Positions 15,786 through 35,247 are shown, numbered from the stretch's first letter. The stretch: DNA of 64,000 nt from Actinomycetota bacterium (GCA_040511595.1 JBEVGU010000038.1:23903-87902); one strand, 5' to 3'. The notes: generated by a model from the letters alone, not told the origin. Program-made: numbers and translations.

Positions 15786-16478
15786 ATGCCGATGGTGAGG
15801 GATCGGTCGATCCCGGAGGCCACGGTGGGCCGACTCCCCCTCTACCTGCGAGCGCTGGTCGACCTGGCCGAGGCCGGCGCAGGCACGGTCTCGAGCGACG
15901 AGCTGGCCGAGGCGGCCGGCGTGAACTCCGCGAAGGTTCGCAAAGACCTGTCGCACCTCGGCTCGTACGGCACGAGAGGCGTCGGCTACGACGTCGCATA
16001 CCTGATCCATCAGATCCGGCGGGAGCTCGGTCTCACGCAGCACTGGGCGATCGTCATCGTCGGCATCGGCAACCTCGGCCATGCCCTCGCGAACTACGGT
16101 GGGTTCGCCGAGCGAGGGTTCCGGATCGCGGCGCTCGTGGACGTCGACGACGCTCGCGTGGGCGAGCAGGTGGGCGAACTGCGGATCGAGCATGTCGACT
16201 CGCTGTCACGCCTGGTCGAGGAGCTCGACATCGCGATCGGCGTCATCGCGACCCCCGCGACGGCGGCCCAAGAGGTGGCCGACGGTCTCACGGAGGCCGG
16301 TGTGCGATCGATCCTGAACTTCGCGCCCGCGATGATCGCCGTGCCTCCCGGGGTGTCGGTCCGCAAGGTCGATCTCGCGATCGAGCTCCAGATCCTCGCG
16401 TTCTACGAGCAGCGAAAGGCCACCCTCGCCGACGTGAAGCGGCGAGGCCGCGCCGTGGCAGACGTCACCCGCGCATGA
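15786..16478 (+). CDS. rex: redox-sensing transcriptional repressor Rex
   Basis: Winged-helix N-terminus plus Rossmann fold (VIVGIGNLG). Confidence 0.9.
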   Translation: MPMVRDRSIPEATVGRLPLYLRALVDLAEAGAGTVSSDELAEAAGVNSAKVRKDLSHLGSYGTRGVGYDVAYLIHQIRRELGLTQHWAIVIVGIGNLGHALANYGGFAERGFRIAALVDVDDARVGEQVGELRIEHVDSLSRLVEELDIAIGVIATPATAAQEVADGLTEAGVRSILNFAPAMIAVPPGVSVRKVDLAIELQILAFYEQRKATLADVKRRGRAVADVTRA

Positions 16479-16499: not shown

Positions 16500-16613
16500 C
16501 TACTTCGAGATCGTGACCCAGAGGGCGATGAAGACGACGATGATCATGATGCCCATCAGGATGAACTGCACGCTTCCCTGTTCGAGCAGCGGGACCTCGA
16601 TGTTGGCGATCAT
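16500..16613 (-). CDS. 37-aa hydrophobic micro-protein, hypothetical
   Basis: Product MIANIEVPLLEQGSVQFILMGIMIIVVFIALWVTISK. It lies at the distal end of the b6c operon. Confidence 0.25.
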   Translation of the reverse strand: MIANIEVPLLEQGSVQFILMGIMIIVVFIALWVTISK

Positions 16614-16640
16614 GTGTTCGTCCTTCCCTGATGAGGTTGC

Positions 16641-17390
16641 CTAGGCCGGCCCGTACCAGGCGGGCGCGCCGCCACCGGTGAGGAACTCCTTGCGCTTCTT
16701 CTCGGCGCGATCGAGCAACGGCAGGAAGATCAGGAACGCCACGATCGAGCCGCCCAGGAACATGTAGGAGTAGCGAGGCACGCTGCCGGAGTCGAAGTAG
16801 AGCGAGACCGTCCACAGGGGACCGCCGCCGGTGAAGTGCGACTGCACGACGGCGAGCTTCGTGCCGTCGTCCTCGTTCGCGAACCTGATCGAGTCGATCG
16901 CGAACTGGGTGCCCTGGATCGCGGTGGGGTCGGTCTCTGCGACCCCGAGCTCCTCGTTCGTCTTCTCCGCGAGGAACGTCGTCACGGCGCCGCTGGCGCT
17001 CTGCACGTCGGCCGACTGCTCGGTGTTGGCCGGGTCGGGCACGGCCCATGGGTCACCCGGCCAGCTCGAGTACGTCTCGAAGCGGTTCGACGTCTCGTCG
17101 ACCGCGGCCTCGACCGCGACCCATGCCGGCTCCGACCCGCGTGGCCCGAGGTTCGTGGGGGTCTCGATACCCTGGGACCAGAAGCCGAAGAGCCAGAGCG
17201 CGGAGAGCATGACCATCCAGCCCGAGAACGACACCGCGAGCACGAGGAAGCCGAGCCAGCGCCCGACGATCGCGATCAGCAGCACGTACACGCTGAAGAT
17301 GAACAGCGTGAAGCCCATGATCGTGACGCCGGCACCCTTCCACAGGGTGCCGCACTCGACCGCGAACCCGAGGCAGCTGTGCTGCTCCAT
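16641..17390 (-). CDS. membrane protein associated with the b6c operon, hypothetical
   Basis: Two N-terminal TM helices, an extracytoplasmic domain and a C-terminal TM helix. Its start abuts the cytochrome c stop. Confidence 0.6.
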   Translation of the reverse strand: MEQHSCLGFAVECGTLWKGAGVTIMGFTLFIFSVYVLLIAIVGRWLGFLVLAVSFSGWMVMLSALWLFGFWSQGIETPTNLGPRGSEPAWVAVEAAVDETSNRFETYSSWPGDPWAVPDPANTEQSADVQSASGAVTTFLAEKTNEELGVAETDPTAIQGTQFAIDSIRFANEDDGTKLAVVQSHFTGGGPLWTVSLYFDSGSVPRYSYMFLGGSIVAFLIFLPLLDRAEKKRKEFLTGGGAPAWYGPA

Positions 17391-18125
17391 CTACGGGTCC
17401 CTCGGGTTCAGGTCGGTCTCGGCGAGCGCCCGGGCCGAGGCCTCGGGGTTCAAGCACACGTTGTCTTCGAACGGCACGTTCTCGGAGCTCATCTTGACCA
17501 GGAAGACGACGAGGTCGTTGATCTGCTGGTCGTTGAGGGCGCCCTGGAACCTGATGCTCCACGACGGCATCACCGGCCGTTCCGGCGGGCGGCCTTCCTC
17601 GATGACCTGATAGATGTCGTCCTGGGAGAGGATCGCCGGGTGTGGCGGATCCCCGAAGGGGCCGGCGCAGATGTTGGTGAGGTTCGGGGGGTGTGCGATC
17701 GTGTCGCCCGCCTGGATCACGCCGCCGCGGAGCTCGGGTCCGTGGCATCGCACGCACCCGACGCCGAGCTGGTTCTCCTCGGAGAAGTTCTGGACCGCGA
17801 GCTCGCCGCGGTCGAAGGCGAGCACCTCGAGATCCTCCTCCTGCTTCAGGTTCGTCGAGGGCTCGGTGAGCCAGCTGTACGGCACGAAGACCACGAAGAA
17901 GGCGACCAGCACCACGCCCCAGCCCTGCAGCTTCTGCAGCAGCGGGGTCTCGAGCGCTGCGTCGGCCGGGCCTGGGCGCATGCCGCGCGGGATGTCGACC
18001 GGCCGCTCCTTCTGGCGGCTGCGGAAGTAGAGCGCGGCCGCGGCCGCGGCCACGAAGATCGCGCCCAGCACGAGCAGCACGACGCCCGCTGTCGTCGTGG
18101 CGGCGAGCACGTTCGGCGCGAGCAT
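17391..18125 (-). CDS. membrane-anchored monoheme cytochrome c
   Basis: Single CVRCH heme-binding motif with a downstream Met ligand region. N-terminal TM anchor. Confidence 0.8.
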   Translation of the reverse strand: MLAPNVLAATTTAGVVLLVLGAIFVAAAAAALYFRSRQKERPVDIPRGMRPGPADAALETPLLQKLQGWGVVLVAFFVVFVPYSWLTEPSTNLKQEEDLEVLAFDRGELAVQNFSEENQLGVGCVRCHGPELRGGVIQAGDTIAHPPNLTNICAGPFGDPPHPAILSQDDIYQVIEEGRPPERPVMPSWSIRFQGALNDQQINDLVVFLVKMSSENVPFEDNVCLNPEASARALAETDLNPRDP

Positions 18126-18154
18126 CTCCGTCGTTCGTTCCTCCCCTCGAAGCC

Positions 18155-18874
18155 TCAGCCGGTCGCGACGCAGAACGGGCCCTGCGGCGGCTGATCGATC
18201 GTGTCGGTGCCGCGGGGCGGACCGAGGATCACCTCGGACGTGTCGACGACCACGCTGCCGTCGGTGATCTCGAGCATGAACCGGTCCATGCCTCGGGGCG
18301 CTGGGCCGAGCCGATACTCGCCGGCGCCGTTGTACTTCGAGCCGTGGCACGGGCATTCGAACCATCGTGAGGCCTGACAGAACGGCACCCGGCAGCCGAG
18401 GTGCACGCAGCGCTGGTACAGAGGCATGATGCCCTCGGCGGTGACCCCCTCGGTCGCGTAATCGACGTCGCCGCTCGGCGATCCGTTGTAGTTCACGACG
18501 TAGAAGCGGCCGGTGCCGTTGTAGGCCACGCCGTTGTCGTTGATCTCGGCCTTGATGTCGTCGATGTTGCCCGCGTCGACGAGCGATCCGAAGCCGCCCT
18601 TGAGGTTGGGCCACAGGAACGCGACCGTGGCCCCCCCGAACTGGGCGCCGAACACGAGCAACGACGTGAGCAGCGACCGACGGAAGAAGTCGCGACGCGA
18701 GAGCGACTTGACAGGCTTGCCGGCCACCTCGATCTGGCCGTCGGCAGTCTCGCGCGCGGCGCGGTTCGCCCGCGCGAAGGACAGGCCGAACACGATCGCG
18801 AAGATGTCGAGCACGATGAACGCGAGGATGGCCGCGACGAGCGGCGTCGAGATGCCGAGCAGGCCGAGCGGCAT
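18155..18874 (-). CDS. qcrA: Rieske [2Fe-2S] iron-sulfur subunit of the cytochrome bc complex
   Basis: Twin-arginine motif (SRRDFFRRS). Rieske boxes CVHLGC and CPCHGS. Confidence 0.9.
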   Translation of the reverse strand: MPLGLLGISTPLVAAILAFIVLDIFAIVFGLSFARANRAARETADGQIEVAGKPVKSLSRRDFFRRSLLTSLLVFGAQFGGATVAFLWPNLKGGFGSLVDAGNIDDIKAEINDNGVAYNGTGRFYVVNYNGSPSGDVDYATEGVTAEGIMPLYQRCVHLGCRVPFCQASRWFECPCHGSKYNGAGEYRLGPAPRGMDRFMLEITDGSVVVDTSEVILGPPRGTDTIDQPPQGPFCVATG

Positions 18875-18879
18875 GGTGC

Positions 18880-19740
18880 TCACAGCTCGAAGAACACCCC
18901 CTGCGCCCACGGCCAGATCCAGTTGTAGCCGGGGCCGCGGAAGAACGAGCCGATGATCGTGAGCACGCCGCCGAACATGAACAGGATCGTGAACATCGTG
19001 ATCGCGATCTTGCGGTCGCCCGGCTTGATGCTCGGGTTGCGGTCGACGTAGGGCACCGCGGCGAGCCCGACCAGGATGAACGTCGGGATCGTGATGCCCG
19101 CGATCATCGGGTGGAAGTAGCGAAGCAGCTCCTGCAGACCGAGGAAGTACCACGGGGCCTTCGACGGGTTGGGCGTAAGGTTCGGGTTCGCGAGCTCACG
19201 CAGCGGCGCGTTGATGAACGCCGAGAAGAACGTCAACGCCGCGAGCAGGATGAACATCGCGACGAACTCCTCGATCAGCAGATGGGGCCAGACGTTGACG
19301 CGGTCGCCCTGTTCGCGTTCGACGCGTTGGATGCCCTCGGGCGGGACGAGCGCCAGCAGGCGATGCTTGTCGGCGGCTCCCTTCTTGGGCGTGGGCAGGT
19401 TGCCCGTGGGCAACGGGGCTTCGCGGGCCGGGGTGGTAGCCGGCGCCGCCGCCACCGCGACCGGGGCGCCGGCGGCTGCCGCTGCAGGCGCGCCCGCCGC
19501 GGCAGGCGCGCCTGCAGATGCGGCCGCGGCGGCGGGTTGGGCAGCGCCACCATTGCCACCGGCGGTGGGCGCGGCGGCCTCGTGCCTCGCCGCTTCCTCG
19601 GGGTTCGCGGCGCGGTAGGCGCGCACGGCCGCCGAGCGGGCGCGGCCCTCGGCCACGCGACGGTCGGTTCCCTTGGCCAGCTCTGCCTCGAGCGTGGAGT
19701 CGAAGACCGATTGGTCGAGCGGGGTGTCTTCCTTGGCCAC
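18880..19740 (-). CDS. cytochrome b C-terminal domain protein (b6f subunit-IV-like) with Ala/Pro-rich N-terminal extension
   Basis: GTG start after AGGAG. PEWY-like region APWYFLGLQELLRYF. About 110 aa of low-complexity A/P-rich sequence precede the membrane domain. Confidence 0.8.
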   Translation of the reverse strand: MAKEDTPLDQSVFDSTLEAELAKGTDRRVAEGRARSAAVRAYRAANPEEAARHEAAAPTAGGNGGAAQPAAAAASAGAPAAAGAPAAAAAGAPVAVAAAPATTPAREAPLPTGNLPTPKKGAADKHRLLALVPPEGIQRVEREQGDRVNVWPHLLIEEFVAMFILLAALTFFSAFINAPLRELANPNLTPNPSKAPWYFLGLQELLRYFHPMIAGITIPTFILVGLAAVPYVDRNPSIKPGDRKIAITMFTILFMFGGVLTIIGSFFRGPGYNWIWPWAQGVFFEL

Positions 19741-19751
19741 CGATGACTCCT

Positions 19752-20522
19752 TTACAGGGGACCCGAGATGCCGCCGTCCTTGCGGATGCGCCAGAAGTGC
19801 ACCGAGAGGAAGATCACCAACACGAACGGCAGCGCCAGCACGTGCAAGACGTACCAGCGCAGCAGGGTCTCGGGGCCGACCACGACGCCGCCCAGCAGGA
19901 GGAAGTTCGCCTGCTTCGCGATGAACGGCGAGTACCCCGCGAGCGACGTGCCCACGGTGACCGCCCAGATCGCGAGCTGGTCCCACGGCAGCAGATAGCC
20001 CGTGAACGACAGGCCGAGCGTGAGGAACAGCAGGATCACGCCGACGACCCAGTTGAACTCGCGCGGCGGCTTGTAGGCCCCGGTGTAGAACACCCGGGCC
20101 ATGTGCAGCGTCACGCTGAAGACCATGAGGTGGGCCCCCCACCGATGCAGGTTGCGCACGAGATCGCCGAAGAACACCGAAGTGCGGATGTTCTGCATGT
20201 CCGTGAACGCCTGCGCGCCCCCGATGTCGGCCGTCGGCCGGTAGAAGAACATCAGGAAGATGCCGGTGATCGTGAGCAGGATGAACAGGAAGAATGAGAG
20301 CCCGCCGAGGCAGAACGTGTAGGTCAGTTTCAGCCCGTGCCGCTTCACCTTCACCGGGTGCAGGTGGTACAGCACGTTGTTCATCGTCGCGAGCGCTCGG
20401 TCGCGCGAGGTGTCCTTGTACCCCTTGCGGAAGATGGAGCCCGGCCGAAAGATCGACTTCCAGACCTCGGTCTCGCGGATGCGATCACCCAGGTCGCTGG
20501 GTGAGGGCGGCTTCAGCTTCAC
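19752..20522 (-). CDS. qcrB: cytochrome b6-type (N-terminal half of cytochrome b) with heme-ci cysteine
   Basis: Heme His ligands in HRWGAHL and TLHMARV. The FCLGG cysteine matches the heme-ci Cys of Bacillus and b6f cytochrome b6. The C-terminus RIRKDGGISGPL matches Bacillus QcrB. Confidence 0.85.
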   Translation of the reverse strand: MKLKPPSPSDLGDRIRETEVWKSIFRPGSIFRKGYKDTSRDRALATMNNVLYHLHPVKVKRHGLKLTYTFCLGGLSFFLFILLTITGIFLMFFYRPTADIGGAQAFTDMQNIRTSVFFGDLVRNLHRWGAHLMVFSVTLHMARVFYTGAYKPPREFNWVVGVILLFLTLGLSFTGYLLPWDQLAIWAVTVGTSLAGYSPFIAKQANFLLLGGVVVGPETLLRWYVLHVLALPFVLVIFLSVHFWRIRKDGGISGPL

Positions 20523-20926
20523 CGCGTTCCCTCTTCGGCAGCCTGTGACATCGGGACTTGGGCCATCGTGCGCGAACCGGCTTTGGACCCCTCGGGCAGT
20601 CGCGCGTAGTAGAGCGTGTCGGTCGGGCACCGATCGACGCACACGGAACAGCGCGTGCACGCGTTGTCATCGACCACGAACACCGCCGTGGCCGTGTCCA
20701 CCTCGTCCCCGACGGCGTCCTCGGCGGAGTCGCGCACGATGCCCGTCGACATCATGTAGATGCAGTTCCAGGGACAGACGTCTTCGCACGCCCGGCAGAG
20801 GATGCAGTTGTCGGGGTCGAGCATCAGGTGCTTCGGGGACTTGACCCCTTGGGCGAGCCACGCGGGGTCGACCGCTTCCACGACGTAGTCCTCGTGGATG
20901 TCGACCTCGGTCTTGGTGAACGGCAT
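20519..20926 (-). CDS. 2x[4Fe-4S] dicluster ferredoxin
   Basis: Two CxxCxxCxxxCP motifs. Its stop overlaps the qcrB GTG start (GTGA). Confidence 0.85.
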   Translation of the reverse strand: MPFTKTEVDIHEDYVVEAVDPAWLAQGVKSPKHLMLDPDNCILCRACEDVCPWNCIYMMSTGIVRDSAEDAVGDEVDTATAVFVVDDNACTRCSVCVDRCPTDTLYYARLPEGSKAGSRTMAQVPMSQAAEEGTR

Positions 20927-20938
20927 GGGCTCCAGCTC

Positions 20939-21364
20939 CTAGCGGTACCCGCCCGTCGGTCGGCTCTCCGACGAGCCGCGCAGCTTGTGTCGCCAGTTCT
21001 GCATGATCGCGGCGGCCACGAGCACCGTGATGATAGGTCCGGTCGACAACCCCATCGCGATGGCGTCGCGAACCTGCAGCAGCAGCTCCTGGTACTGGGC
21101 CGGCTGGCCGCCGGGCAGCAACGTCGGGATCTCCTGCAGGGCAGCCTCGATGTCGGTCGGCCCCTGCCACCCGAGCTTCTGCTCGGAGACGTACAGCCAG
21201 AACGACGGCAGCACGGATGTGGTGATCAACAGGAAGAACACGATTCCCACCGAGAAGGCGACGGCAGTGGTCCACGTCCACTCGAACCCCTTGAGGAACG
21301 CCTCGACGCGCTCCTTGCGGCTCTGCGTGGACTTCATGGGCGTCGCCGTCTCGACCTGGCTCAT
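20939..21364 (-). CDS. membrane protein, hypothetical (first gene of the ferredoxin-b6c operon)
   Basis: Two to three TM helices. Start assigned at MSQVETATP. Confidence 0.5.
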   Translation of the reverse strand: MSQVETATPMKSTQSRKERVEAFLKGFEWTWTTAVAFSVGIVFFLLITTSVLPSFWLYVSEQKLGWQGPTDIEAALQEIPTLLPGGQPAQYQELLLQVRDAIAMGLSTGPIITVLVAAAIMQNWRHKLRGSSESRPTGGYR

Positions 21365-21435
21365 GCGCTCCCGAGTCTCCTGAGGCGGGGGGATTATAGA
21401 CATGTGTCCCGCGGGCCCGACGACCCGCGGGTGAC

Positions 21436-21453
21436 TCGTGAATCGCTTCACAA
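21436..21453. promoter_or_regulatory. candidate Rex operator (TCGTGAA-TCGC-TTCACAA) in the divergent promoter between the b6c and ccdA operons
   Basis: Matches 17 of 18 positions of the TTGTGAA-N4-TTCACAA Rex consensus. AT-rich palindrome in a GC-rich intergenic region. Confidence 0.5.
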
Positions 21454-21572: not shown

Positions 21573-22301
21573 GTGATCGCCGACATCGTGCAGACCGGTC
21601 TCGCCTCGTGGTGGGCGCCGCTGCTGGCGTTCGCCGCGGGGTTGGTGTCGTGCGTGAGCCCCTGTGTGTGGCCGCTGGTGCCCGGATACGTCTCGTTCGT
21701 CGCCGGCGAGCGGATCGCCGAGGGGGGGCGCCGCCCGCTGGCCCCGATGCTCCTGTTCATCCTCGGGTTCACGATCGTGTTCGTGCTGCTCGGCGCGTTC
21801 GCCTCGACGTTCGTGAGGGTGTTCAAAGGCACCTCGGGCCAGCGCATCGGTGGGGCGATCGTGATCGCGTTCGGCGTGCTGATGATCGGCTATGCCCTCG
21901 GGCGAGGATCGCTGGCGCTCTACGCGGAGCGGCGCCCGTTCCTCGAACGCGTGAGGCCCGGAAGCGTCGGAGCCGTGCCGCTCGGCATGGCCTTCGCCGC
22001 GGGGTGGACACCGTGCATCGGCCCCGTGCTCGGCTCGATCCTGGCGATCGCGGCCACGGGAAGCACGGCACGCGCCGTGCTGCTGCTCGCGAGCTACTCG
22101 GTCGGCCTCGGCGTGCCGTTCCTGCTCGTCGGGCTCGGCGTCACGCGCTTCATGGGCGCCTTCGACTGGATCAAGCGCCGATACACCGCGATCGCGGTGG
22201 TCTCGGGCGCGTTGATGGTCGGGCTCGGCGTGCTGCTGTTCACGGGCCGGTTCACGCGCCTGGTCGCGCCGCTCGCCGAGCGCTTCACCCCCGGCATCTG
22301 A
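21573..22301 (+). CDS. ccdA: cytochrome c-type biogenesis protein CcdA (DsbD-like)
   Basis: CVSPC motif. Six TM helices. Confidence 0.85.
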   Translation: MIADIVQTGLASWWAPLLAFAAGLVSCVSPCVWPLVPGYVSFVAGERIAEGGRRPLAPMLLFILGFTIVFVLLGAFASTFVRVFKGTSGQRIGGAIVIAFGVLMIGYALGRGSLALYAERRPFLERVRPGSVGAVPLGMAFAAGWTPCIGPVLGSILAIAATGSTARAVLLLASYSVGLGVPFLLVGLGVTRFMGAFDWIKRRYTAIAVVSGALMVGLGVLLFTGRFTRLVAPLAERFTPGI

Positions 22302-22348
22302 GCGCCGCCCAGGCCAGGAAGCCGTCCGTCTAGGATGAGGAGGTCCAC

Positions 22349-23962
22349 ATGACCTCAGCTCAGCGACCCACGCTGCATCAGTCCGTCGCCCTCGTGTGGC
22401 GGACGCTGCGCTCGATGCGCACGGCGCTGATCCTGCTGTTGATGATCGGGCTCGCGTCCGTCGCGGGGTCGCTGCTCCCCCAATGGCCGAACTCGCCCGA
22501 GCGCGTGATCGAGTATCGGGCCGAGCACGCGTTCTGGGGCACGTTCTTCGACCGCGCCGGACTCTTCGACGTCTTCGGTTCCTGGTGGTTCGTGCTGCTC
22601 ACCACGCTGTTGTTCGTCTCGCTGATCGCCTGCCTCGTGCCTCGTACCCGCGCGCTGTGGAGGGCGCTGCGCACGCCGCCGATGCATGCCCGCGAGATCG
22701 ACGCCTTCCCGTGCTACACGGACATGGCCGTCGTCGCCGCACCCGACGTATCGCTCGAGGCTGCGAGCCACACCCTGCGGCGACGCCGCTTCCGCGTCGC
22801 GCGCGATCCCGGGCGCCCAGCGCTCGCCGCCGAGAAGGGCGTCGCGCGCGAGGTGGGGAGCCTCGCGTTCCACTGGGCCTTCATCCTGTTGCTCGCCGGG
22901 GTGCTCTACGGCAAGGGCACCGGCTTCAGCGGGTTCGCGGTGGTCGTCGAAGGGCAGACGTGGATCGACGCCCAGGCGAACTACGACGGGCAGATCCGGA
23001 CGGGCCGGTTCTTCGACGGCGACTTCACGGGAGCCGGCGTGCGACTGCGCGACTTCCGCAGCGACTTCCGCCGCACGGGCCAGCCGATGGACTTCGTCTC
23101 CGAGGTCGACCTGCTCGGCCCCGACGGGTCGGTGCTCGGGCCCGCGGACATCAGGGTGAACCACCCCGCGTCGATCGAGGGCATCCGGATCTACCAGATC
23201 AACTTCGGATGGGCGCCGACGATCGAGATCCGCGACCGCGGCGAGGTGATCGCATCGGGCGCGGTCGTGATGGATCGCGACCCCGCGCCCGAGGGCGTCG
23301 AGGACTTCGCGATGCCGTGGCGAGGCATCGTCAAGCAGCCGGGAGCCGGCGCCGGCGGCGCCGATCGCGCGATCGAGCTCGAGCTCTGGCCCGACAGCCG
23401 CGGGCTCGCCGCGCTGCTCCAGGGCGACGAGCCCCAGGCGATGCTCGTGGAGTTCGATCCCATCATCAGGTTCACGGTGTGGGAAGGCACGCTCACCGAC
23501 CTCTCGACGAACCGGCTCGACACGAGGCTCCTGGACGAGGTCTCCACGGGGATCCTCGGCGCCGGGCGCACGGCCGATCTCGCCGACGGGAGGGAGCTCA
23601 CCGCGGGGGAGACGGCCTCGGGCTCGGCGATCTCGTTCCCGGAGCTCCGCCAGTACTCGGTGTTCCAGGTGAGCCGCGACGCCGGGGTGCCCCTGGTGCT
23701 GGCCGCGGCTATCCTCATCCTCGTGGGATTGCTGCCCGCGCTGTACGGCTCCCGGCGGAAGGTCTGGGTCCGGATCGACCCCGACGGTGAGGGAGCCAGG
23801 GTGCGGGTCGGTGGTCTCGCGATGCAACGCAAACCGCAGTTCGAGGATGAGTTCGCCCGGCTGGTCGACGCGATCGCGTCGGCGGCCGGTGGCGCGAGGG
23901 CGCAGGTTCCGGCGCCCGACGATCGAGAGCCGGACGACCGAGAAAAGGTGCAGACACGGTGA
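22349..23962 (+). CDS. resB: cytochrome c biogenesis protein ResB (Ccs1)
   Basis: System II ResB architecture. Confidence 0.85.
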   Translation: MTSAQRPTLHQSVALVWRTLRSMRTALILLLMIGLASVAGSLLPQWPNSPERVIEYRAEHAFWGTFFDRAGLFDVFGSWWFVLLTTLLFVSLIACLVPRTRALWRALRTPPMHAREIDAFPCYTDMAVVAAPDVSLEAASHTLRRRRFRVARDPGRPALAAEKGVAREVGSLAFHWAFILLLAGVLYGKGTGFSGFAVVVEGQTWIDAQANYDGQIRTGRFFDGDFTGAGVRLRDFRSDFRRTGQPMDFVSEVDLLGPDGSVLGPADIRVNHPASIEGIRIYQINFGWAPTIEIRDRGEVIASGAVVMDRDPAPEGVEDFAMPWRGIVKQPGAGAGGADRAIELELWPDSRGLAALLQGDEPQAMLVEFDPIIRFTVWEGTLTDLSTNRLDTRLLDEVSTGILGAGRTADLADGRELTAGETASGSAISFPELRQYSVFQVSRDAGVPLVLAAAILILVGLLPALYGSRRKVWVRIDPDGEGARVRVGGLAMQRKPQFEDEFARLVDAIASAAGGARAQVPAPDDREPDDREKVQTR

Positions 23963-24924
23963 CCGACCTGCAGTGGGCACGCATCTCGAACGACGCATTC
24001 AACGTGGCGCTGTTCGCCTACATCGCGGCGATGATCGGCTCCTTCGTGTTCCTCGCGTTCCGACGCGACGCGATCTGGCAGGTCTCCAGAGCGATCGCCG
24101 TTGCCGGCGTGGCCGCGAACCTCGTCTCGATCGCAGCTCGCGGGCTCGCAGCCCACCGCGTGCCGTGGGGCAACATGTACGAGTACTCCTCGCTGCTTGC
24201 ACTGCTCGTCGTGATCGGGGCGCTGGTCGTGCTCGAGGGCGTCTACAAGGTGCGGTCGCTGACCGGCTTCGCTCTGATGTTCAGCGTGCTGACGATGGCG
24301 GTCGCGGTGTCGTTCCTCTACGTGGGACCCGGGCCGCTCGTGCCGGCGCTCGACTCCTACTGGATCAAGATCCACGTGCAGGCCGCGATCTGGGGCTCGT
24401 CGCTGTTCGCGCTCGGCGGCATCGCCACGATCGCGTACCTGATCGTCGACCGGGCCGAGCGCCGGAAGCTCGCAGCGCTCGGCTCCCAGTCGCCGCCGCC
24501 GATCATGGGCGGCTCGCTCGACCTCGACGCGGTGAGCTCCGATGCGCCGGACGATCTCGTGGCCGACTCGGCCGAAGACGTGCGGGAGCGGCCCTCGGAG
24601 CGGCGGCTCGTGCCGTCGGCCGCCGGGCTCGACCGGCTCGCGTATCGCATCATCTCGGTGGCGTTCCCGATCTGGACGTTCGCGGTGATCGCCGGTGCGA
24701 TCTGGGCACAGGAGGCGTGGGGCCGGTACTGGGGCTGGGACCCGAAGGAGACGTGGTCGTTCATCACGTGGGTGATCTTCGCGGGGTACCTGCACGCGCG
24801 GGCCACGAGCGGTTGGAAAGGCCGCCGCGCGGCCGTGATCGCGCTCGTCGGGTTCGCCTCGCTGCTCGTCACGTATTACGTGGTGAACCTGTGGATCGTG
24901 GGCCTGCACAGCTATGCGAAATGA
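23959..24924 (+). CDS. resC: cytochrome c biogenesis protein ResC/CcsA
   Basis: GTGA overlap with resB. Trp-rich WWD-type region and conserved His residues. Confidence 0.85.
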   Translation: MTDLQWARISNDAFNVALFAYIAAMIGSFVFLAFRRDAIWQVSRAIAVAGVAANLVSIAARGLAAHRVPWGNMYEYSSLLALLVVIGALVVLEGVYKVRSLTGFALMFSVLTMAVAVSFLYVGPGPLVPALDSYWIKIHVQAAIWGSSLFALGGIATIAYLIVDRAERRKLAALGSQSPPPIMGGSLDLDAVSSDAPDDLVADSAEDVRERPSERRLVPSAAGLDRLAYRIISVAFPIWTFAVIAGAIWAQEAWGRYWGWDPKETWSFITWVIFAGYLHARATSGWKGRRAAVIALVGFASLLVTYYVVNLWIVGLHSYAK

Positions 24925-25044: not shown

Positions 25045-26136
25045 GTGCGGAAGAAGGCGCTGTGGACCCTGGGCCTGGCGGTCCTGGGACTGCTGCTCGG
25101 CGCGTGCGCTCAGAACGCCGGACAGGACACGCTCGACCCCGTCGGCGACGTCGCGAAGCAACAGAAGGCCCTGTTCGTGCCCGTGTTCTGGGTCGCGACG
25201 GTCGTGTTCGTGATCGTGCAGGGCGGCATCATCTACATCGCCCTCCGCTTCCGCCACCGCAAGGGGCAGGAACGCATGCCCAGACAGACGCATGGGAATA
25301 CCAGGCTCGAGATCGGCTGGACGATCGTCCCGACGGTGGTGCTCGCCGTGGTGATGGTGCCCGCCATCTCGCTGCTGTGGGAGCTCGCTCGGCCCCCCGA
25401 GGCCGGCGCCCTGAACATCACGGTGCAGGGATTCCAGTGGTGGTGGGGGTTCAGCTACCCCGACGGGGACATGGCCACCGATTGGGACACCCCGATCACG
25501 ATCGCCGACACGATGATTGTGCCAACCGACCGCGATGTCTACCTCTCGCTCGAAGCGATGGGCGGCGCCGCGAAGGACGACGACGGGAGTCCCGACCACG
25601 AGGTGATCCACTCCTTCTGGGTGCCCCAGCTGTTCGGGAAGCAAGACGTGGTGCCCAACCGCACGAACCACATCCAGTTCAGTGTCGACGAGCCGGGTCT
25701 GTACACGGGTCAGTGCGCGGAGTTCTGCGGCCTGCAGCACGGACGCATGAAGCTCGAGGTCGTGGCCCTTGCGCCGGACGACTGGGACGCCTGGGTCGAG
25801 AACCAGCGGACCCTGCCGCCCAGTCCCACCGATCCGCTCGCCGAACGGGGTGAGGAGATCTTCCTGAACCCGCTATCCGACGGCCGCGGAAGCTGTACCG
25901 CGTGTCACACCGTGGGGGACAACCCGGGCGGGGCGGCGGCGCCCAACCTGTCGCACTTCGCCGACGAGCAGCACACGTGCTTCGCCGGGTGCAACTGGCC
26001 GGTCTCCGATCGTGAGGCGCTCGCCGCCTGGCTCGCCGACCCGAGCGCCGAGAAGCTCGGGGCGAAGATGCCTGACTACCAGCTCACCGACGAGGAGATC
26101 CAGGCCCTCGTCGCCTACCTGTACAGCCTGACGTGA
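25045..26136 (+). CDS. ctaC: cytochrome c oxidase subunit II with C-terminal fused cytochrome c (caa3-type)
   Basis: Lipobox LLGAC. CuA site (CAEFCGLQHGRM). C-terminal CTACH heme-c motif. Confidence 0.9.
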   Translation: MRKKALWTLGLAVLGLLLGACAQNAGQDTLDPVGDVAKQQKALFVPVFWVATVVFVIVQGGIIYIALRFRHRKGQERMPRQTHGNTRLEIGWTIVPTVVLAVVMVPAISLLWELARPPEAGALNITVQGFQWWWGFSYPDGDMATDWDTPITIADTMIVPTDRDVYLSLEAMGGAAKDDDGSPDHEVIHSFWVPQLFGKQDVVPNRTNHIQFSVDEPGLYTGQCAEFCGLQHGRMKLEVVALAPDDWDAWVENQRTLPPSPTDPLAERGEEIFLNPLSDGRGSCTACHTVGDNPGGAAAPNLSHFADEQHTCFAGCNWPVSDREALAAWLADPSAEKLGAKMPDYQLTDEEIQALVAYLYSLT

Positions 26137-26155
26137 CGGAGGCGATCACCGAACC

Positions 26156-28066
26156 ATGGCGAGCGTGAGCGTTCCCGCGAGCGGGCGAGGCCTGCTGCGC
26201 CGACCCGTGTCCGTCACGGGTTTCTGGAGCTGGTTCACCACCGTGGACCACAAGAAGATCGGCATCATGTACGGGGTCGTGGCCTTCGCGTTCTTCGTGA
26301 TCGGGGGTCTCGAAGCCCTGCTGATCCGGGCCCAGCTCGCGCGGCCCGACGGCACGCTGCTGAACGCCGACCAGTACAACCAGGTCTTCACGATGCACGG
26401 CCTCACGATGATCTTCCTGTTCGTCATGCCGATGTCCTCGGGGCTGTTCAACTACCTGATCCCCCTGATGATCGGCGCCCGCGACGTGGCGTTCCCTCGC
26501 CTGAACGCCTACAGCTTCTGGGCGTTCGCGATGGGCGGGCTCTTCCTCTACTCGAGCGTGTTCCTCGGCGGCGCGCCGAACGGCGGCTGGTTCGGCTACG
26601 CGCCCAACTCGACCACCGATCCCTCGATCGGCATGACGTTCTACGCGCTCGGTCTGATCATCACCGGCATCGCGTCGACCGCGGGCGCCATCAACCTGGC
26701 CGTCACGGTCATCAACATGCGCGCGCCCGGACTCACGCTCTTCCGCATGCCGCTGTTCGTGTGGATGGGGCTCGTCGTCCAGTTCCTGCTCGTGTTCTCG
26801 CTGCCGATCATCACGGTGGCGTTGTTCCAGCTGTTGTTCGACCGGCGGTTCGACACCGCGTTCTTCGACCCGACGCGCGGCGGCGATCCGATCCTGTGGC
26901 AGCACCTGTTCTGGCTCTTCGGCCATCCCGAGGTGTACATCCTGATCCTGCCGGCGTTCGGCATCATCAGCGAGGTGTTGCCGGTGTTCAGCCGCAAGCC
27001 GCTCTTCGGCTATCAGTTCGTGGTCTTCTCGGGCATCGCGATCGGGTTCATCGGGTTCGGCGTCTGGGCCCACCACATGTTCGCGGTGGGCCTCGGCCCG
27101 GTGGCCAACACGGCGTTCGGCATCTCGACGGCGATCATCGCGATCCCGACCGGGGTGAAGATCTTCAACTGGATGGGCACGATGTACGGAGGCGACATCC
27201 GGTTCGCCTCACCGATGCTGTTCGCGATCGGCGCGGTCTCGATGTTCGTGATCGGGGGCCTGTCGGGTGTAACGCATGCGATCGTGCCGAGCGACTACCA
27301 ACAGACCGATACGTACTACATCGTCGCGCACTTCCACTATGTGCTCTTCGGGGGCGCCGTCTTCGGCTTCTTCTCGGCCTTCCACTACTGGTGGCCGAAG
27401 GTGTTCGGCCGGCGGCTGGGCGAGGCGGTCGGCAAGGCGCAGTTCTGGGTGTTGCTGATCGGGTTCAACCTGGCGTTCGGGCCCATGCACATCCTCGGCA
27501 TGCAGGGCATGATCCGACGTGAGTACACCTATCCCGAGTCGCTCGGGCTCACCTTCTGGAACGAGATCTCGACCGTCGGCGCGTTCCTGATCGCGCTCTC
27601 GGTGCTGATGTTCCTCGTCAACGTGGTGCGCACCGGCCTGCGGCGGGGGGTCGAGGCGGTCGAGGACCCGTGGGACGCGCGCACGATGGAGTGGATGACC
27701 ACGAGCCCGCCGCCGCCCCACAACTTCGACGAGATCCCGACCGTGCATGCGCTCGACGAGTTCTGGCACCGCAAATACGTCGAGGACGAGCGCACCGGCC
27801 GGCTCGTGCCGGCCCAGGCAGGGGCGTCGGACCCCCACGACGTACGCGGCGTCGCCGGCGCCGCTCCCGAGGAGGCGTCCGGGCACGGGAGCGGGCACTC
27901 GATCCACCTCCCGAGCCCGTCGTATTGGCCCCTCGTGTCGAGCCTCGGGCTGCCGATCATGGCCTACGGGGTGCTCTACTCCTGGTGGCTGGTCGGCCTC
28001 GGGGCCCTGGTGGTCTTGACCGGCTTCTACGGATGGGCGCTCGAGCCCTCGGTCGCGGAGGAGTAG
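26156..28066 (+). CDS. ctaD: cytochrome c oxidase subunit I with ~80-aa C-terminal two-TM extension
   Basis: Canonical subunit-I sequence. The extra C-terminal hydrophobic hairpin resembles a fused small subunit. Confidence 0.9.
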   Translation: MASVSVPASGRGLLRRPVSVTGFWSWFTTVDHKKIGIMYGVVAFAFFVIGGLEALLIRAQLARPDGTLLNADQYNQVFTMHGLTMIFLFVMPMSSGLFNYLIPLMIGARDVAFPRLNAYSFWAFAMGGLFLYSSVFLGGAPNGGWFGYAPNSTTDPSIGMTFYALGLIITGIASTAGAINLAVTVINMRAPGLTLFRMPLFVWMGLVVQFLLVFSLPIITVALFQLLFDRRFDTAFFDPTRGGDPILWQHLFWLFGHPEVYILILPAFGIISEVLPVFSRKPLFGYQFVVFSGIAIGFIGFGVWAHHMFAVGLGPVANTAFGISTAIIAIPTGVKIFNWMGTMYGGDIRFASPMLFAIGAVSMFVIGGLSGVTHAIVPSDYQQTDTYYIVAHFHYVLFGGAVFGFFSAFHYWWPKVFGRRLGEAVGKAQFWVLLIGFNLAFGPMHILGMQGMIRREYTYPESLGLTFWNEISTVGAFLIALSVLMFLVNVVRTGLRRGVEAVEDPWDARTMEWMTTSPPPPHNFDEIPTVHALDEFWHRKYVEDERTGRLVPAQAGASDPHDVRGVAGAAPEEASGHGSGHSIHLPSPSYWPLVSSLGLPIMAYGVLYSWWLVGLGALVVLTGFYGWALEPSVAEE

Positions 28067-28068
28067 GC

Positions 28069-28713
28069 GTGTCGGACCTGGCCGTCACCCCCGGGCACGG
28101 ACCCGCCGACGCCGGCTCGCACGACGAGCACGCGACCGTGACGGGGCTGCCGAACACCAAGATCGCGATGTGGCTGTTCCTGGCCTCGGAATGCCTGCTC
28201 TTCGGAGCGTTGATCACCACCTACGTGCTGTACCGGGGGGCCAGCGAGATCGGGCCCTATCCCGCCGACATCTACGACATCCCGTACACGTCGGTCTCGT
28301 CGTTCGTGCTGCTGGCGTCGTCGCTCACGATGGTGCTGGCGCTCGCGGCGGCGCAGAAGCGCGACGGGACCCGAATGCGGCTGTGGCTGATCGCCACCGC
28401 GATGCTCGGCCTCACGTTCGTCGGAGGCCAGGTCTACGAGTTCACGACGTTTTACGACGAGGGCCTAGCGCTCGGGACGAACCTGTTCGGCACGACGTTC
28501 TACGTGCTCACCGGGTTCCACGGGGTGCACGTGACGGTGGGCATCCTCATGCTGCTCTCGCTCGTGGGCCTCTCGACCCTCGATCGCCTTCCGGACGACG
28601 CGGCGTTCCCCGTCGAGATGGTCGGTCTGTACTGGCACTTCGTCGACATCGTCTGGATCGTCATCTTCACCATCGTCTACCTGATCCCGTCCCCGTCCGG
28701 GCCGCCCGCATGA
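28069..28713 (+). CDS. ctaE: cytochrome c oxidase subunit III
   Basis: GTG start immediately after the ctaD stop. Subunit-III helices are present. Confidence 0.85.
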   Translation: MSDLAVTPGHGPADAGSHDEHATVTGLPNTKIAMWLFLASECLLFGALITTYVLYRGASEIGPYPADIYDIPYTSVSSFVLLASSLTMVLALAAAQKRDGTRMRLWLIATAMLGLTFVGGQVYEFTTFYDEGLALGTNLFGTTFYVLTGFHGVHVTVGILMLLSLVGLSTLDRLPDDAAFPVEMVGLYWHFVDIVWIVIFTIVYLIPSPSGPPA

Positions 28714-28720
28714 GGAGGCG

Positions 28721-29086
28721 GTGACGGTGTCGGATGTCGAGACCCCGTTCGAGCAGGAGCTCGGCGCGCGAGACATGCCCGACCCCGGTGAGGCAGGGGC
28801 GCCGCATCACGAGCACCCGAGCCCCAAGGAGTACATCCGCATCGGTGTGATCCTCGCGGTCCTCACCGGCCTCGAGGTCGCCACGTACTACGTCGACGTC
28901 GGAGGCGTGCTCGTGCCCACCCTGCTCGGCTTGGCGGCCGTGAAGTTCGCGCTCGTCGTGATGTGGTTCATGCACCTCAGGTTCGACAGTCCCACGTACG
29001 CGCGGTTCTTCCTGATGGGTCTCGCGGGCGCGGCCACCCTGTATCTGGTCGTGCTGATCTCCTTCGGCATCTTCTTGGTGGACTGA
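28721..29086 (+). CDS. cytochrome c oxidase subunit IV (prokaryotic CtaF/CoxIV family)
   Basis: Small protein with three TM helices and family similarity to CoxIV. Confidence 0.7.
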   Translation: MTVSDVETPFEQELGARDMPDPGEAGAPHHEHPSPKEYIRIGVILAVLTGLEVATYYVDVGGVLVPTLLGLAAVKFALVVMWFMHLRFDSPTYARFFLMGLAGAATLYLVVLISFGIFLVD

Positions 29087-29092
29087 GCGACG

Positions 29093-29923
29093 ATGCAGCT
29101 CCCCGGCTGGCACGCGCATCCCGACGTCTGGCTGTTGTTCGGGTCGATCGTCGCGGCCTACCTGATCGCGACGCGCCGGCACCTGGCGGCCACGGGGGAG
29201 GCGACCCCGCGACGGAAGACCACGCTGTTCATCGCGGGCATCGGCGTGCTGTGGCTCGGCGCGGACTATCCCGTGCACGACCTCGCCGAGGGCTACCTGT
29301 ACCTCATGCACATGACGCAGCACCTGGTGTTCACGCTGGTGGCGGCACCGCTGCTGATCGCGGGCATGCCGGTATGGATGCTGCGGGCCCTGCTCGCCCC
29401 GGCCGCCGCGAGGCGCCTGTTCCGGTTCTTTACGCGTCCGGTGATCGCGTTGATCCTCTTCAACGGCGTGCTGCTGTTCACCCACTGGCCGCAGGTGGTC
29501 GAGGCATCGGTCGGTTCGGAGATGGTCCACTTCGCCCTGCACGTGCTGATCGTCGCCTCGGCGCTCGTGATGTGGTGGCCCGTGATGTCGCCGTTGCCCG
29601 AGCTGCCCTCGCTGTCGCCCCCCGGGCAGATGATCTACCTGTTCCTGCAATCCCTCGCGCCCACGATCCCGGCGTCGTTCCTGACGTTCGGCCACTCGCC
29701 GCTGTACCCGGTATACGCGACCTTCCCCCGCATCTGGGGCATCTCGGCGCTGACCGACCAGCTGATCGCGGGCCTCATCATGAAGCTCGCCGGCGGCCTG
29801 GTGCTCTGGGTCGTCATCGCGGTGATCTTCTTCCGCTGGTTCGCGCAGGAGCAGCGAGACGGACTCGATGCCTCGGCCTACCAGGACGTGCAGCGAGAGA
29901 TCGGCGCGGAGCTGGGCCGATGA
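29093..29923 (+). CDS. ctaG: caa3-type cytochrome oxidase assembly factor CtaG (Caa3_CtaG family)
   Basis: Polytopic membrane protein similar to Bacillus CtaG. Confidence 0.7.
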   Translation: MQLPGWHAHPDVWLLFGSIVAAYLIATRRHLAATGEATPRRKTTLFIAGIGVLWLGADYPVHDLAEGYLYLMHMTQHLVFTLVAAPLLIAGMPVWMLRALLAPAAARRLFRFFTRPVIALILFNGVLLFTHWPQVVEASVGSEMVHFALHVLIVASALVMWWPVMSPLPELPSLSPPGQMIYLFLQSLAPTIPASFLTFGHSPLYPVYATFPRIWGISALTDQLIAGLIMKLAGGLVLWVVIAVIFFRWFAQEQRDGLDASAYQDVQREIGAELGR

Positions 29924-29959: not shown

Positions 29960-31264
29960 ATGCGTGAGGGCAAGAATCGGCAGAGCCTGCTGCTGCCGAT
30001 CCTGATCCCCCTGGCGGTGCTCGCCGTGATCGGGCTGGTGCTGGTTGGATTCTCCCGCGTGCTGCTCGCCGTCTCGCACACCGCGGCGACCGTCGTGGCC
30101 CTCGTGGCCGCCGCCGCGGTCGTGGCGGTTGGAGGGTACGTCGCATCGAGGCGACGCGTGAGCGGCGCCACGCTCTTCTCGATGGTGGCGGCGGTGACGG
30201 GCATCGCGATGCTCGCCGGTGGCCTGGCCGTCGTGGCCGCGCCGTTGGAGGAGGAGGGCGGGGGCGAGCCGGCGGAGGGGCCCGTGGTGACGCTCGCGGC
30301 TCCCGAGGGCGCCGCGGCCGACGGCTTCTCGACCGACGAGCTGTCCGCGCCCTCGGACGAGCCCTTCACGCTCGAGTTCGACAACGAGGATCCGTCGGTG
30401 GCCCACAACGTGGTGCTCTTCGACGGCCCGGACGCCGACGCACCGGCGCTCTTCACCGGCGGGCTGGTCACGGGGCCGAGCACCGCCAACTACTCGGTCG
30501 AGGCGGTGCCCGAGGGGAAGTACTTCTTCCACTGCGAGGTGCACCCGACGACCATGACGGGCACGATGACGGCCGCGCCGGGCGGCGGTGGCGGTGGCGG
30601 CGGCGGTGGCGGCGTCACGGTGGTCGCTGCCGACCTCGCCTTCGACACCGATACGATCGAGCTGGCGCCCGACGTCGAGAACACGATCACGTTCGACAAT
30701 CAGGACGCGGGCACGCCGCACAACATCGCGATCTACACCGATGACTCGCTCTCCGAGTCGCTGTTCGTGGGCGATCTCGTGACCGGTCCCGACACCATCG
30801 AGTACACGATCGCCCCCATCCCCCCCGGTGAGTACTACTTCCACTGCGACGTGCACCCCACCATGAGCGGGACGGTCGTCGTGGCCGCCGATGGCGGTGG
30901 CGGAGGGGGTGGTAGCGGCGGTGGCGGCGGCGAACCGTCGGATGAGCCGCCCGCCGACGGGGGTGGAGGCGGTGCTGGCACCGCGACGGCCTCGATCGGG
31001 GCCGAGGGCACGGCGTTCGACACATCCACCCTCAGCTGGCCCGCCGACTCCGACGTGACGCTCTCGTTCGACAATCGCGATCCCGTCGACGTGGCCGGGC
31101 CGCACAACGTGGCGGTCTACGACGGCGAAGCGGCGCTGTTCACCGGCGAGCTGGTCGAGGGGCCGGCCACCGTCGACTACGTGGTCCCGCCCATGCCGGC
31201 GGGGAGCTACGAGTTCCGATGCGACGTGCATCCGACGATGGCCGGGACGGTCGAGGTCACCTGA
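29960..31264 (+). CDS. membrane-anchored protein with three tandem type-1-copper cupredoxin domains joined by poly-Gly linkers
   Basis: Three N-terminal TM helices. The motif HN...(43-44 aa)...C-x2-H-x3-M occurs three times (AHNVV/HCEVHPTTM; PHNIA/HCDVHPTM; PHNVA/RCDVHPTM). Confidence 0.8.
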   Translation: MREGKNRQSLLLPILIPLAVLAVIGLVLVGFSRVLLAVSHTAATVVALVAAAAVVAVGGYVASRRRVSGATLFSMVAAVTGIAMLAGGLAVVAAPLEEEGGGEPAEGPVVTLAAPEGAAADGFSTDELSAPSDEPFTLEFDNEDPSVAHNVVLFDGPDADAPALFTGGLVTGPSTANYSVEAVPEGKYFFHCEVHPTTMTGTMTAAPGGGGGGGGGGGVTVVAADLAFDTDTIELAPDVENTITFDNQDAGTPHNIAIYTDDSLSESLFVGDLVTGPDTIEYTIAPIPPGEYYFHCDVHPTMSGTVVVAADGGGGGGGSGGGGGEPSDEPPADGGGGGAGTATASIGAEGTAFDTSTLSWPADSDVTLSFDNRDPVDVAGPHNVAVYDGEAALFTGELVEGPATVDYVVPPMPAGSYEFRCDVHPTMAGTVEVT

Positions 31265-33692: not shown

Positions 33693-33796
33693 CGTGGGTT
33701 CCTCACCGTGCCTCGGGGGTTGGCTCACCGCGACGGCCACGCGGCGCCCACATGATAGTGCGGGGGTCGCCCGGCGAGCTGCGAGATACTCCGCAC

Positions 33797-35229: not shown

Positions 35230-35247
35230 TTGTGAAGGTTTTCACAA
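35230..35247. promoter_or_regulatory. Rex operator TTGTGAAGGTTTTCACAA
   Basis: Perfect 7-4-7 inverted repeat matching the actinobacterial Rex box. It sits ~80 bp upstream of the reductase gene that leads into the nuo operon. Confidence 0.7.

Follow-up and report, generated by a model that had tools for sequence, protein, structure and literature searches.

A split cytochrome b6c operon with a conserved dicluster ferredoxin gene in deep-branching Actinomycetota

A 64-kb stretch of DNA from an uncultured soil Actinomycetota bacterium (64,000 nucleotides (nt); GCA_040511595.1 JBEVGU010000038.1:23903-87902), hereafter the window, carries an operon for a Rieske complex with a split cytochrome b, on the minus strand from 21364 to 16500, in which the gene for a small ferredoxin with two [4Fe-4S] cluster motifs stands directly before that for cytochrome b6. 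The G+C content of the window is 66-72%.

Layout of the operon and its ferredoxin gene

Eight minus-strand genes had been listed between 16500 and 21364 in a preliminary description of this DNA; all were found, in the order given and with correct coordinates. The first, memA (20939-21364), codes for a small membrane protein with two predicted transmembrane (TM) helices. It is followed by the genes for the 2x[4Fe-4S] ferredoxin (20519-20926; 135 amino acids (aa), Pfam Fer4 families), a four-helix cytochrome b6 (19752-20522; 256 aa, Pfam Cytochrome_B, E 1.2e-42), a homologue of subunit IV (SUIV; 18880-19740; 286 aa, Pfam Cytochrom_B_C), a Rieske [2Fe-2S] protein with the motifs CVHLGC and CPCHGSKY (18155-18874; Pfam Rieske) and a membrane-anchored monohaem cytochrome c with a single CVRCH (17391-18125; 244 aa, Pfam Cytochrom_C). 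The last two genes are memB (16641-17390), for a membrane protein whose central domain is flanked by N- and C-terminal TM helices, and that for a micro-protein of 37 aa with one TM helix (16500-16613), relatives of which were found by tblastn. Neither MemA nor MemB matched a Pfam or NCBIfam family.

The genes for MemA and the ferredoxin are separated by 12 nt, and the successive gaps downstream of b6 measure 11, 5, about 29, 0 and 27 nt. The Rieske gene has an alternative start, GTG 18883, which overlaps the SUIV stop codon and would turn that junction into a 4-nt overlap; the SUIV and Rieske genes overlap in 54 of 55 relatives. When the operon was scanned, no promoter-like or terminator-like sites were found on its coding (minus) strand, and the predicted co-transcription of the operon is well supported. 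An Rfam scan of the window found nothing.

The ferredoxin contains two complete CxxCxxCxxxCP motifs (C41xxC44xxC47xxxC51P and C89xxC92xxC95xxxC99P), which bears out the earlier view of a dicluster ferredoxin inside the operon. All eight cysteines were invariant in 42 homologues from three lineages, in the 80/80 related loci described below and across six lineages. The protein is acidic (isoelectric point (pI) 4.3; 4.3-4.8 across six lineages), and a sequence scan found neither a signal peptide nor a TM helix; from these properties it is predicted to be cytoplasmic. It has specific N- and C-terminal extensions, both conserved, and a motif of the C-terminal tail, R.(M/L)..VP..Q.A, is common to four branches. 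Among the related loci the ferredoxin is 77-89% identical within the class, whereas the periplasmic subunits are much less conserved (their identity being put at 50-70% and, more broadly, at 50-90%). The best sequence matches among solved structures were the polyferredoxins FwdF and MvhB and NuoI-type subunits.

The stop codon of the ferredoxin gene (TGA, 20521-20519) overlaps the start codon of b6 (GTG, 20522-20520) in the sequence GTGA, and a Shine-Dalgarno sequence (GAGGGAA) is located 5 nt upstream. This overlap, which rests on the GTG start call for b6, had been reported before and had been taken to imply translational coupling and a fixed stoichiometry. It was however not conserved: across 78 relatives the two genes lay a median 28 nt apart (range -4 to 70), with an overlap in 4/78, so that obligatory translational coupling of the ferredoxin and b6 is not supported. 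Apparent ferredoxin-b6 or memA-ferredoxin fusions in the public protein collection (P0125, P0126, P0138, P0141, P0171 and P0195) were rejected as frameshifted read-through, with alternating in-frame and out-of-frame segments. Such representatives could mislead surveys of domain architecture in that collection.

Conservation and class of the complex

More than 1000 close relatives of the ferredoxin were present in the protein collection, and the best 120 were all at least 81% identical. A genome scan returned 80 species-level genomes, all of uncultured Actinomycetota (the uncultured class referred to here as the class), including Bacterium HR12 and the isolates AC_66 and AC_69; judged from names alone, the GTDB placeholders UBA4738, HRBIN12 and AC-69 were apparently named after these. 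Wherever the contig sufficed, the order memA-ferredoxin-b6-SUIV-Rieske-cytochrome c-memB-micro-protein was found in these loci (80/80), with the gene for the redox-sensing repressor Rex on one side and those for CcdA and ResB on the other. Since it recurs in all 80 related loci, the gene arrangement is not attributable to chance.

An exhaustive HMMER search of representatives recovered distant members of the ferredoxin family that share the N-terminal region (36-51% identity). The divergent homologues that were looked up (38-51% identity) were encoded in the same operon at six loci (L082, L083, L084, L085, L086 and L087). The first of these belongs to an Acidimicrobiia metagenome-assembled genome (MAG; GCA_027494165.1), and L083 and L084 represent branches with neighbouring cytochrome c maturation genes of the Ccm type. 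Flanking genes vary between lineages (Ccm versus ResB systems), and the order within the operon is kept. As their linkage has persisted over such deep divergence, the ferredoxin and the complex are very likely tied in function. A second contig of the Acidimicrobiia MAG (L081, 8001-8414) carries a ferredoxin identical to that of L082 (8001-8414), followed by about 1.4 kb without a called gene where b6 would be expected; this copy may be a duplicate created in assembly, a pseudogene or a second locus.

The architecture had been regarded as atypical for the lineage. Its synteny in the 80 uncultured Actinomycetota genomes and in five more divergent branches, Acidimicrobiia included, contradicts this: it is typical of several deep actinobacterial classes. 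Split cytochrome b of the APWY type had already been noted in deep-branching Actinobacteria (Kao and Hunte, 2014; PMC4122944).

Cytochrome b6 was compared with solved b6f structures from chloroplasts and cyanobacteria, the best match being 1q90_B (E 4.2e-46), with further matches to 6rqf, 2zt9 and 1vf5. The segment 68-YTFCLGG aligned with 32-IFYC(I/L)GG, which places Cys71 on Cys35, the haem-ci ligand of the solved b6f structures; a misalignment of this cysteine, named in the preliminary description as a refuting outcome, was thus not seen. Cys71 occupies the position of this ligand, and its attachment to the haem through a thioether is predicted. The four b-haem histidines (both pairs) were conserved in the structure alignment, and the protein ends in GISGPL, as does b6 of b6f. 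The motif YTFCLGG was present in 78/78 relatives and the cysteine of CLGG was also invariant in five other lineages. Within the class b6 is 88-98% identical, and it has a conserved N-terminal extension with the motif W[KR]S[IM]FR (VW[KR]SIFRPGS). Assignment to the split-cytochrome-b (b6/SUIV) Rieske complexes with a haem-ci cysteine is supported by these alignments.

SUIV has three TM helices and the Qo motif APWY. The longer motif NPSKAPWYF was found in 58/58 relatives and in five other lineages, and is thus invariant over six lineages. A cytoplasmic extension of about 150 aa at the N-terminus of SUIV contains a conserved basic, helix-like segment and a low-complexity linker rich in Ala and Pro; the stretch ahead of the first TM helix differs greatly in length among lineages (43 to 226 residues). 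An invariant Glu directly precedes the equivalent of Phe40 (WPHL..EF); as a conjecture, it may serve haem ci as axial ligand and lower its potential.

Box II of the Rieske protein, CPCHGSKY, with its Ser/Tyr pair, was found in 55/55 relatives and in five other lineages; CxHLGC was likewise invariant over six lineages. A hydrophobic helix (residues 12-30) precedes a twin-arginine motif (SRRDFF, at 59), giving an internal twin-arginine translocation (Tat) signal that resembles the multi-helix Rieske proteins of other Actinobacteria. Cytochrome c has one CxxCH (244 aa) in the window and two (306-390 aa) in all five other ferredoxin-bearing lineages (L082-L086); the lineage of the window has apparently lost the second haem domain. 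In this lineage the adjacent caa3 oxidase has a COX2 subunit that bears a cytochrome c domain of its own.

The memA gene was located upstream of the ferredoxin gene in 80/80 related loci, and an unannotated gene for 123-154 aa occupied this place in five divergent branches. Likewise, memB was kept in 54 relatives, and an unannotated gene for 232-332 aa followed that for cytochrome c in all five divergent branches. The two membrane proteins are therefore kept in position across all ferredoxin-bearing lineages despite belonging to no Pfam or NCBIfam family. No conserved histidines able to bind haem were seen in MemA. Candidate roles for MemA and MemB are those of a ferredoxin anchor, a supercomplex subunit or an assembly factor. 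The micro-protein had 49 relatives by tblastn (51-86% identity), and open reading frames (ORFs) of 58-71 aa were present at the equivalent position in L082 and L084.

When scored against family models, b6 and SUIV gave their best NCBIfam scores with Geobacter ExtP (290.2 bits, cut-off 290) and ExtQ (53.7 bits), respectively. The score of b6 was 204 bits against the cytochrome b6 subfamily model PRK03735 (cut-off 325) and 110 bits against bc1_QcrB_actin (cut-off 500); bc1_QcrA_actin scored 22.8 bits (cut-off 275). A match of 161 bits was obtained between b6 and chloroplast b6. Geobacter ExtM, considered as a possible ferredoxin beside ExtOPQ, was dropped, being a 12-haem cytochrome according to the source paper. 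The complex had been called Firmicute-type. That label does not hold: the Qo motif is APWY and not PDWY, SUIV (286 aa) is not fused to cytochrome c (244 aa), the gene order is b6-SUIV-Rieske-c, and ExtP and ExtQ score best.

The Qo motif is that of the APWY clade, to which the closest relatives of the complex appear to belong and in which split, CxGG-bearing cytochromes b, none of them characterised, have been described in delta-proteobacteria, in Chloroflexi, Nitrospirales, Planctomycetes and Symbiobacterium, and in a small number of deep-branching Actinobacteria (Ilumatobacter, Rubrobacteridae), and for which reverse operation has been speculated (Kao and Hunte, 2014; PMC4122944). The complex shares with this clade the split b6 and SUIV, the APWY motif and the CxGG motif; WCMGG is usual in the clade, whereas FCLGG is found in the window. 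The clade is probably the same as subfamily G of Dibrova et al. (PMC5600118), which is taxonomically diverse and some members of which are found together with large NAD(P)/Fe-S oxidoreductase subunits of the cytoplasm.

Other known complexes are less close. With b6f of cyanobacteria and chloroplasts the complex has in common a four-helix b6 ending in GISGPL, the Cys35 equivalent, the four haem histidines, a separate SUIV and a Rieske protein. It differs in that b6f has PEWY, cytochrome f and small Pet subunits and no co-encoded ferredoxin, and the complex of the window is respiratory. The b6c complexes of Bacillus and heliobacteria (QcrABC/PetCBDA) are likewise menaquinol-oxidising and b6-type, with a split b6, CxGG and covalent haem ci, and come from a Gram-positive lineage; unlike the operon described here they have PDWY or PEWY, a fusion of SUIV to cytochrome c (Bacillus) and the Rieske gene first, and no ferredoxin gene. 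The QcrCAB bc1 complexes of Mycobacterium and Corynebacterium come from the same phylum, have a TM helix before the twin-arginine motif of the Rieske protein and an aa3 or caa3 oxidase as likely partner, and their dihaem QcrC resembles the dihaem cytochrome c of the other ferredoxin-bearing lineages (not the monohaem protein of the window); their QcrB is however long, unsplit and without the haem-ci cysteine.

For the wider APWY clade, metagenome contigs were scanned to collect a control set, the alignment used being headed by a related long cytochrome b. It comprised 80 loci bearing APWY, whose cytochrome b was 48-57% identical to b6. All those long enough to include the SUIV region had the APWY motif; the gene order was mostly Rieske-b-SUIV, and the motif at the haem-ci position was mostly G(M/L)GG, without the cysteine, and not CxGG. 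None of the 80 loci had a convincing ferredoxin homologue beside cytochrome b (absent in at least 76/80), and a GltD-like flavoprotein was found in two (L101 and L109). On this evidence a memA-ferredoxin pair is peculiar to the actinobacterial subgroup, and so is memB.

The distant homologues of the ferredoxin include proteins of 550-685 aa in which Fer4_20 and Pyr_redox_2 are followed by a C-terminal dicluster domain (GltD-like NAD(P) oxidoreductases). One of these genes (P0237) is followed by a Rieske gene and by genes for a long APWY cytochrome b and an eight-haem (8-CxxCH) cytochrome c (L088), and another (P0256) by a Rieske gene inside which the contig stops (L092). By BLASTP the ferredoxin was 37% identical to the C-terminal domain of P0237 over 81 aa (E 2e-16), with the unusually long inter-cluster loop aligned. 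The L088 cytochrome b has APWY and is 53% identical to b6 and 45% to SUIV. Two tandem GltD-like genes with the same dicluster end lie upstream of the Rieske gene in L088 (2-2444); the first is cut by the contig end, its C-terminal part being visible. The domain similarity to GltD-like proteins is suggestive, not exclusive.

A comparable arrangement has been described in Kuenenia (Kuste4569-4574 and Kustd1480-1485), where in AlphaFold3 models a series of [4Fe-4S] clusters runs from haem bN/cN to FAD, and where Rieske potentials of +303 and +335 mV are consistent with quinol-driven bifurcation toward NAD(P)+ (PMC12954380). As in the window, the core is b6-type and an Fe-S module on the n-side is proposed to draw on haem bN/cN (PMC12954380, PMC5600118), and the Rieske protein carries the Ser/Tyr signature, which has been tied to high potential (PMC12954380). 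The Kuenenia complexes differ in their hexa- or octahaem cytochrome c, which is monohaem in the window and dihaem in its sister lineages, and the operon described here stands in an aerobic setting (caa3 oxidase) and encodes neither a flavin nor an NAD(P) domain (no Pyr_redox or Fer4_20), the dicluster protein of 135 aa standing alone. From this comparison, which was made through the L088 and L092 proteins, the ferredoxin looks like the Fe-S module of anammox-type complexes minus the flavoprotein.

Rex control and respiratory neighbourhood

A Rex operator-like palindrome (TTGTGAAGCGATTCACGA, minus strand; 21436-21453) was found in the intergenic region between the divergent ccdA and memA genes, with one mismatch to TTGTGAA-N4-TTCACAA; 0.01 such matches are expected by chance in the window. 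A site with no more than two mismatches was present between ccdA and memA in 61 of 79 relatives, and no other was found in 1.0 Mb of loci. The rex gene itself (15786-16478, plus strand; Pfam Put_DNA-bind_N and CoA_binding) converges on the end of the operon and is syntenic in 52 relatives. The operon is predicted to belong to the Rex regulon, with a conserved putative operator. The memA ORF could be extended to 21451 (20939-21451), but the upstream GTG is located within the Rex operator; ATG 21364 is the likely start, as indicated by the N-termini of relatives (MSQVET...) and a TATAAT at 21393-21398. A second, perfect Rex palindrome (35230-35247) lies upstream of a gene for a GGR-like flavoprotein (35327-36577), with genes for complex I downstream (NuoD at 38061).

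Divergent from the operon are genes for cytochrome c maturation System II (21573-24924, plus strand): CcdA (21573-22301), ResB (22349-23962) and CcsA (23959-24924). CcdA and CcsA were assigned by Pfam (DsbD_TM and Cytochrom_C_asm) and ResB by synteny with L086 and L087. They are followed by a cluster for a caa3-type cytochrome c oxidase (25045-29923, plus strand; Pfam COX2 and Cytochrom_C (fused), COX1 and Caa3_CtaG), which is the likely electron acceptor of the complex. Beyond the maturation genes the window thus holds the caa3 oxidase, a multi-cupredoxin protein, a CtaA-CtaB fusion and genes for complex I, the same layout as in L087. A second, conventional qcrCAB or any other complex III was not seen within the 64 kb. 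This neighbourhood of oxidase, maturation and complex I genes points to forward quinol:cytochrome c operation in an aerobic chain.

Three genes of this region have additional features. The COX1 protein (26156-28066, plus strand; 636 aa) matches the actinobacterial family of cytochrome c oxidase subunit IV (PF12270) with its C-terminal residues 578-630, which suggests a fusion of COX1 to subunit IV. The gene after CtaG (29960-31264, plus strand) codes for a 434-aa protein with three cupredoxin-like stretches, which may be an oxidase-linked copper carrier or chaperone; a similar gene is present in L087. A single ORF of 623 aa (31869-33740, minus strand) combines COX15/CtaA (haem a synthase) with UbiA/CtaB (haem o synthase), and is the apparent CtaA-CtaB fusion.

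Proposed function and alternatives

The operon is best read, with a probability of about 0.55, as coding for a menaquinol:cytochrome c reductase of the APWY clade that has a dedicated ferredoxin partner on the n-side and is expressed as a single unit under Rex control. Transcription would start at one Rex-controlled promoter and cover the whole operon. Electrons would pass from menaquinol through the b6c complex to the membrane-anchored monohaem cytochrome c and on to the neighbouring caa3 oxidase. The ferredoxin would most likely be a peripheral subunit on the n-side, perhaps held through MemA. Through its two [4Fe-4S] clusters the low-potential chain (bL, bH, ci) would reach on into the cytoplasm, and the complex would have a second electron port beside Qi.

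Menaquinone is the quinone assumed for Actinobacteria. From the invariant Ser and Tyr in box II, the Rieske centre is predicted to be of high potential and to work with a low-potential quinone. By the symmetry rule cited in PMC12954380, such a Rieske centre and menaquinone would together imply a bL of very low potential, and with it an electron exit toward Fe-S clusters would become possible. Two directions may be considered. Quinol oxidation could push one electron to the ferredoxin in a bifurcation of the kind proposed for Kuenenia, or reduced ferredoxin could pass electrons through haem ci to menaquinone, which is equally allowed and thermodynamically easy. The preliminary description had suggested the latter in proposing a ferredoxin:quinone or ferredoxin:cytochrome c route, and such a route may operate.

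Several points weigh against this interpretation. Physical binding of the ferredoxin, the proximity of its clusters to the haem and the direction of electron flow are what we infer from genomic data, and an AlphaFold2 prediction of the ferredoxin from the 42-sequence alignment was unusable (predicted local distance difference test score (pLDDT) 46.5). Typical [4Fe-4S] potentials are far below those measured for haem ci. The similarity to the NAD(P)-oxidoreductase domain is limited to the generic dicluster core (residues 32-110), and GltD-ferredoxin proteins are not specific to bc complexes, as two of the four looked up (P0241 and P0255) had no neighbouring cytochrome b. The N-terminal extension of b6, shared with the L088 cytochrome b, was tried as a marker of ferredoxin docking and rejected, as it also occurs in many loci without ferredoxin or flavoprotein. 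Some control loci have the haem-ci cysteine (CMGG or CLGG: L125, L128, L155 and L163) and no ferredoxin, and the L088 cytochrome b has a flavoprotein partner and WGLGG, without the cysteine; ferredoxin and haem ci are therefore not strictly linked.

Of the other explanations, the one that survives best, though its odds are low, makes the protein a freely diffusing general ferredoxin, merely co-regulated through Rex and without specific interaction with the b6c complex. Its small size, solubility and acidity are those of housekeeping ferredoxins, and most relatives lack the 4-nt overlap with b6. Such a role fits poorly with the position between memA and b6, which is kept across ferredoxins of 38-51% identity despite differing flanks, with the conservation of the specific terminal extensions, and with the finding that every family homologue looked up was bc-linked.

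Somewhat less probable still is a role of the ferredoxin, with MemA, in assembly or maturation, for example as n-side reductant for the attachment of haem ci to Cys71 or in cofactor insertion. The CCB system of b6f has an analogous role. The two genes are the first of the operon and stand beside the cytochrome c maturation genes, the CLGG cysteine is kept in every ferredoxin-bearing operon examined, and no CCB-like family was detected in the operon with Pfam or NCBIfam. However, other APWY-type loci with CMGG or CLGG have no such ferredoxin nearby, the very high conservation of the ferredoxin and its place right before b6 fit a stoichiometric partner better, and the homologous anammox-type domain belongs to a catalytic subunit (PMC12954380).

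Reverse operation, in which electrons from cytochrome c and low-potential electrons from ferredoxin would converge on menaquinone, is improbable. An n-side ferredoxin input would suit such a confurcating mode, and the APWY motif, invariant here, has been tied to it by Kao and Hunte (PMC4122944). No APWY complex has however been characterised in either direction, the neighbouring genes encode the caa3 oxidase, proteins for cytochrome c maturation and complex I, and with no other complex III in the window the forward mode seems necessary for aerobic respiration. Acquisition of a Firmicute-type b6c by a QcrCAB-type lineage, with a ferredoxin translationally coupled to b6, is very hard to maintain: the split b6 and its CxGG, which have parallels in Bacillus and heliobacteria, and the GTGA overlap in the window agree with it, but APWY, the unfused SUIV, the differing gene order, the ExtP/ExtQ scores, the vertical conservation of the operon across several actinobacterial classes and the rarity of the overlap (4/78) do not.

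The core complex clade has already been described in silico, and bc complexes with cytoplasmic Fe-S or flavin modules are already known. No mention was found, in the accessible literature, of a stand-alone dicluster ferredoxin fixed with MemA and MemB in an actinobacterial b6c operon, nor of the homology of this ferredoxin to the Fe-S domain of the flavoproteins or of the conserved Rex control. The evidence is genomic, and the system is of real interest to bioenergetics. Electron exchange between haem ci and ferredoxin in b6f, as an entry point in cyclic flow, has been debated since the first b6f structures; to our knowledge, no complex with a fixed ferredoxin partner has so far been available for testing it.

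The present analysis revises the common picture of Actinobacteria as respiring only via QcrCAB, and describes a ferredoxin gene locked into an operon for a b6-type complex with haem ci in no fewer than five divergent branches of soil-abundant Actinobacteria. It is a tentative proposal that aerobic deep-branching Actinomycetota (UBA4738-type, Acidimicrobiia and others) respire through a b6c complex that includes, in stoichiometric amount, a 2x[4Fe-4S] subunit in electronic contact with haem ci. If this is true, the complex would be a Q-cycle enzyme and a ferredoxin-linked oxidoreductase at once, either bifurcating the electrons of menaquinol between cytochrome c and a ferredoxin of low potential or acting as a built-in ferredoxin:menaquinone reductase, and nature would thereby have provided a minimal model both for the debated passage from ferredoxin to haem ci in b6f and for the bifurcating complexes proposed in anammox bacteria. 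The Acidimicrobiia, in which the operon is known here from a MAG, include cultured species, so that the system may be open to biochemistry. If the ferredoxin is bound, the complex would offer a small, tractable system for the study of electron transfer from haem ci to Fe-S clusters, of quinol-based bifurcation and of the function of the APWY clade.

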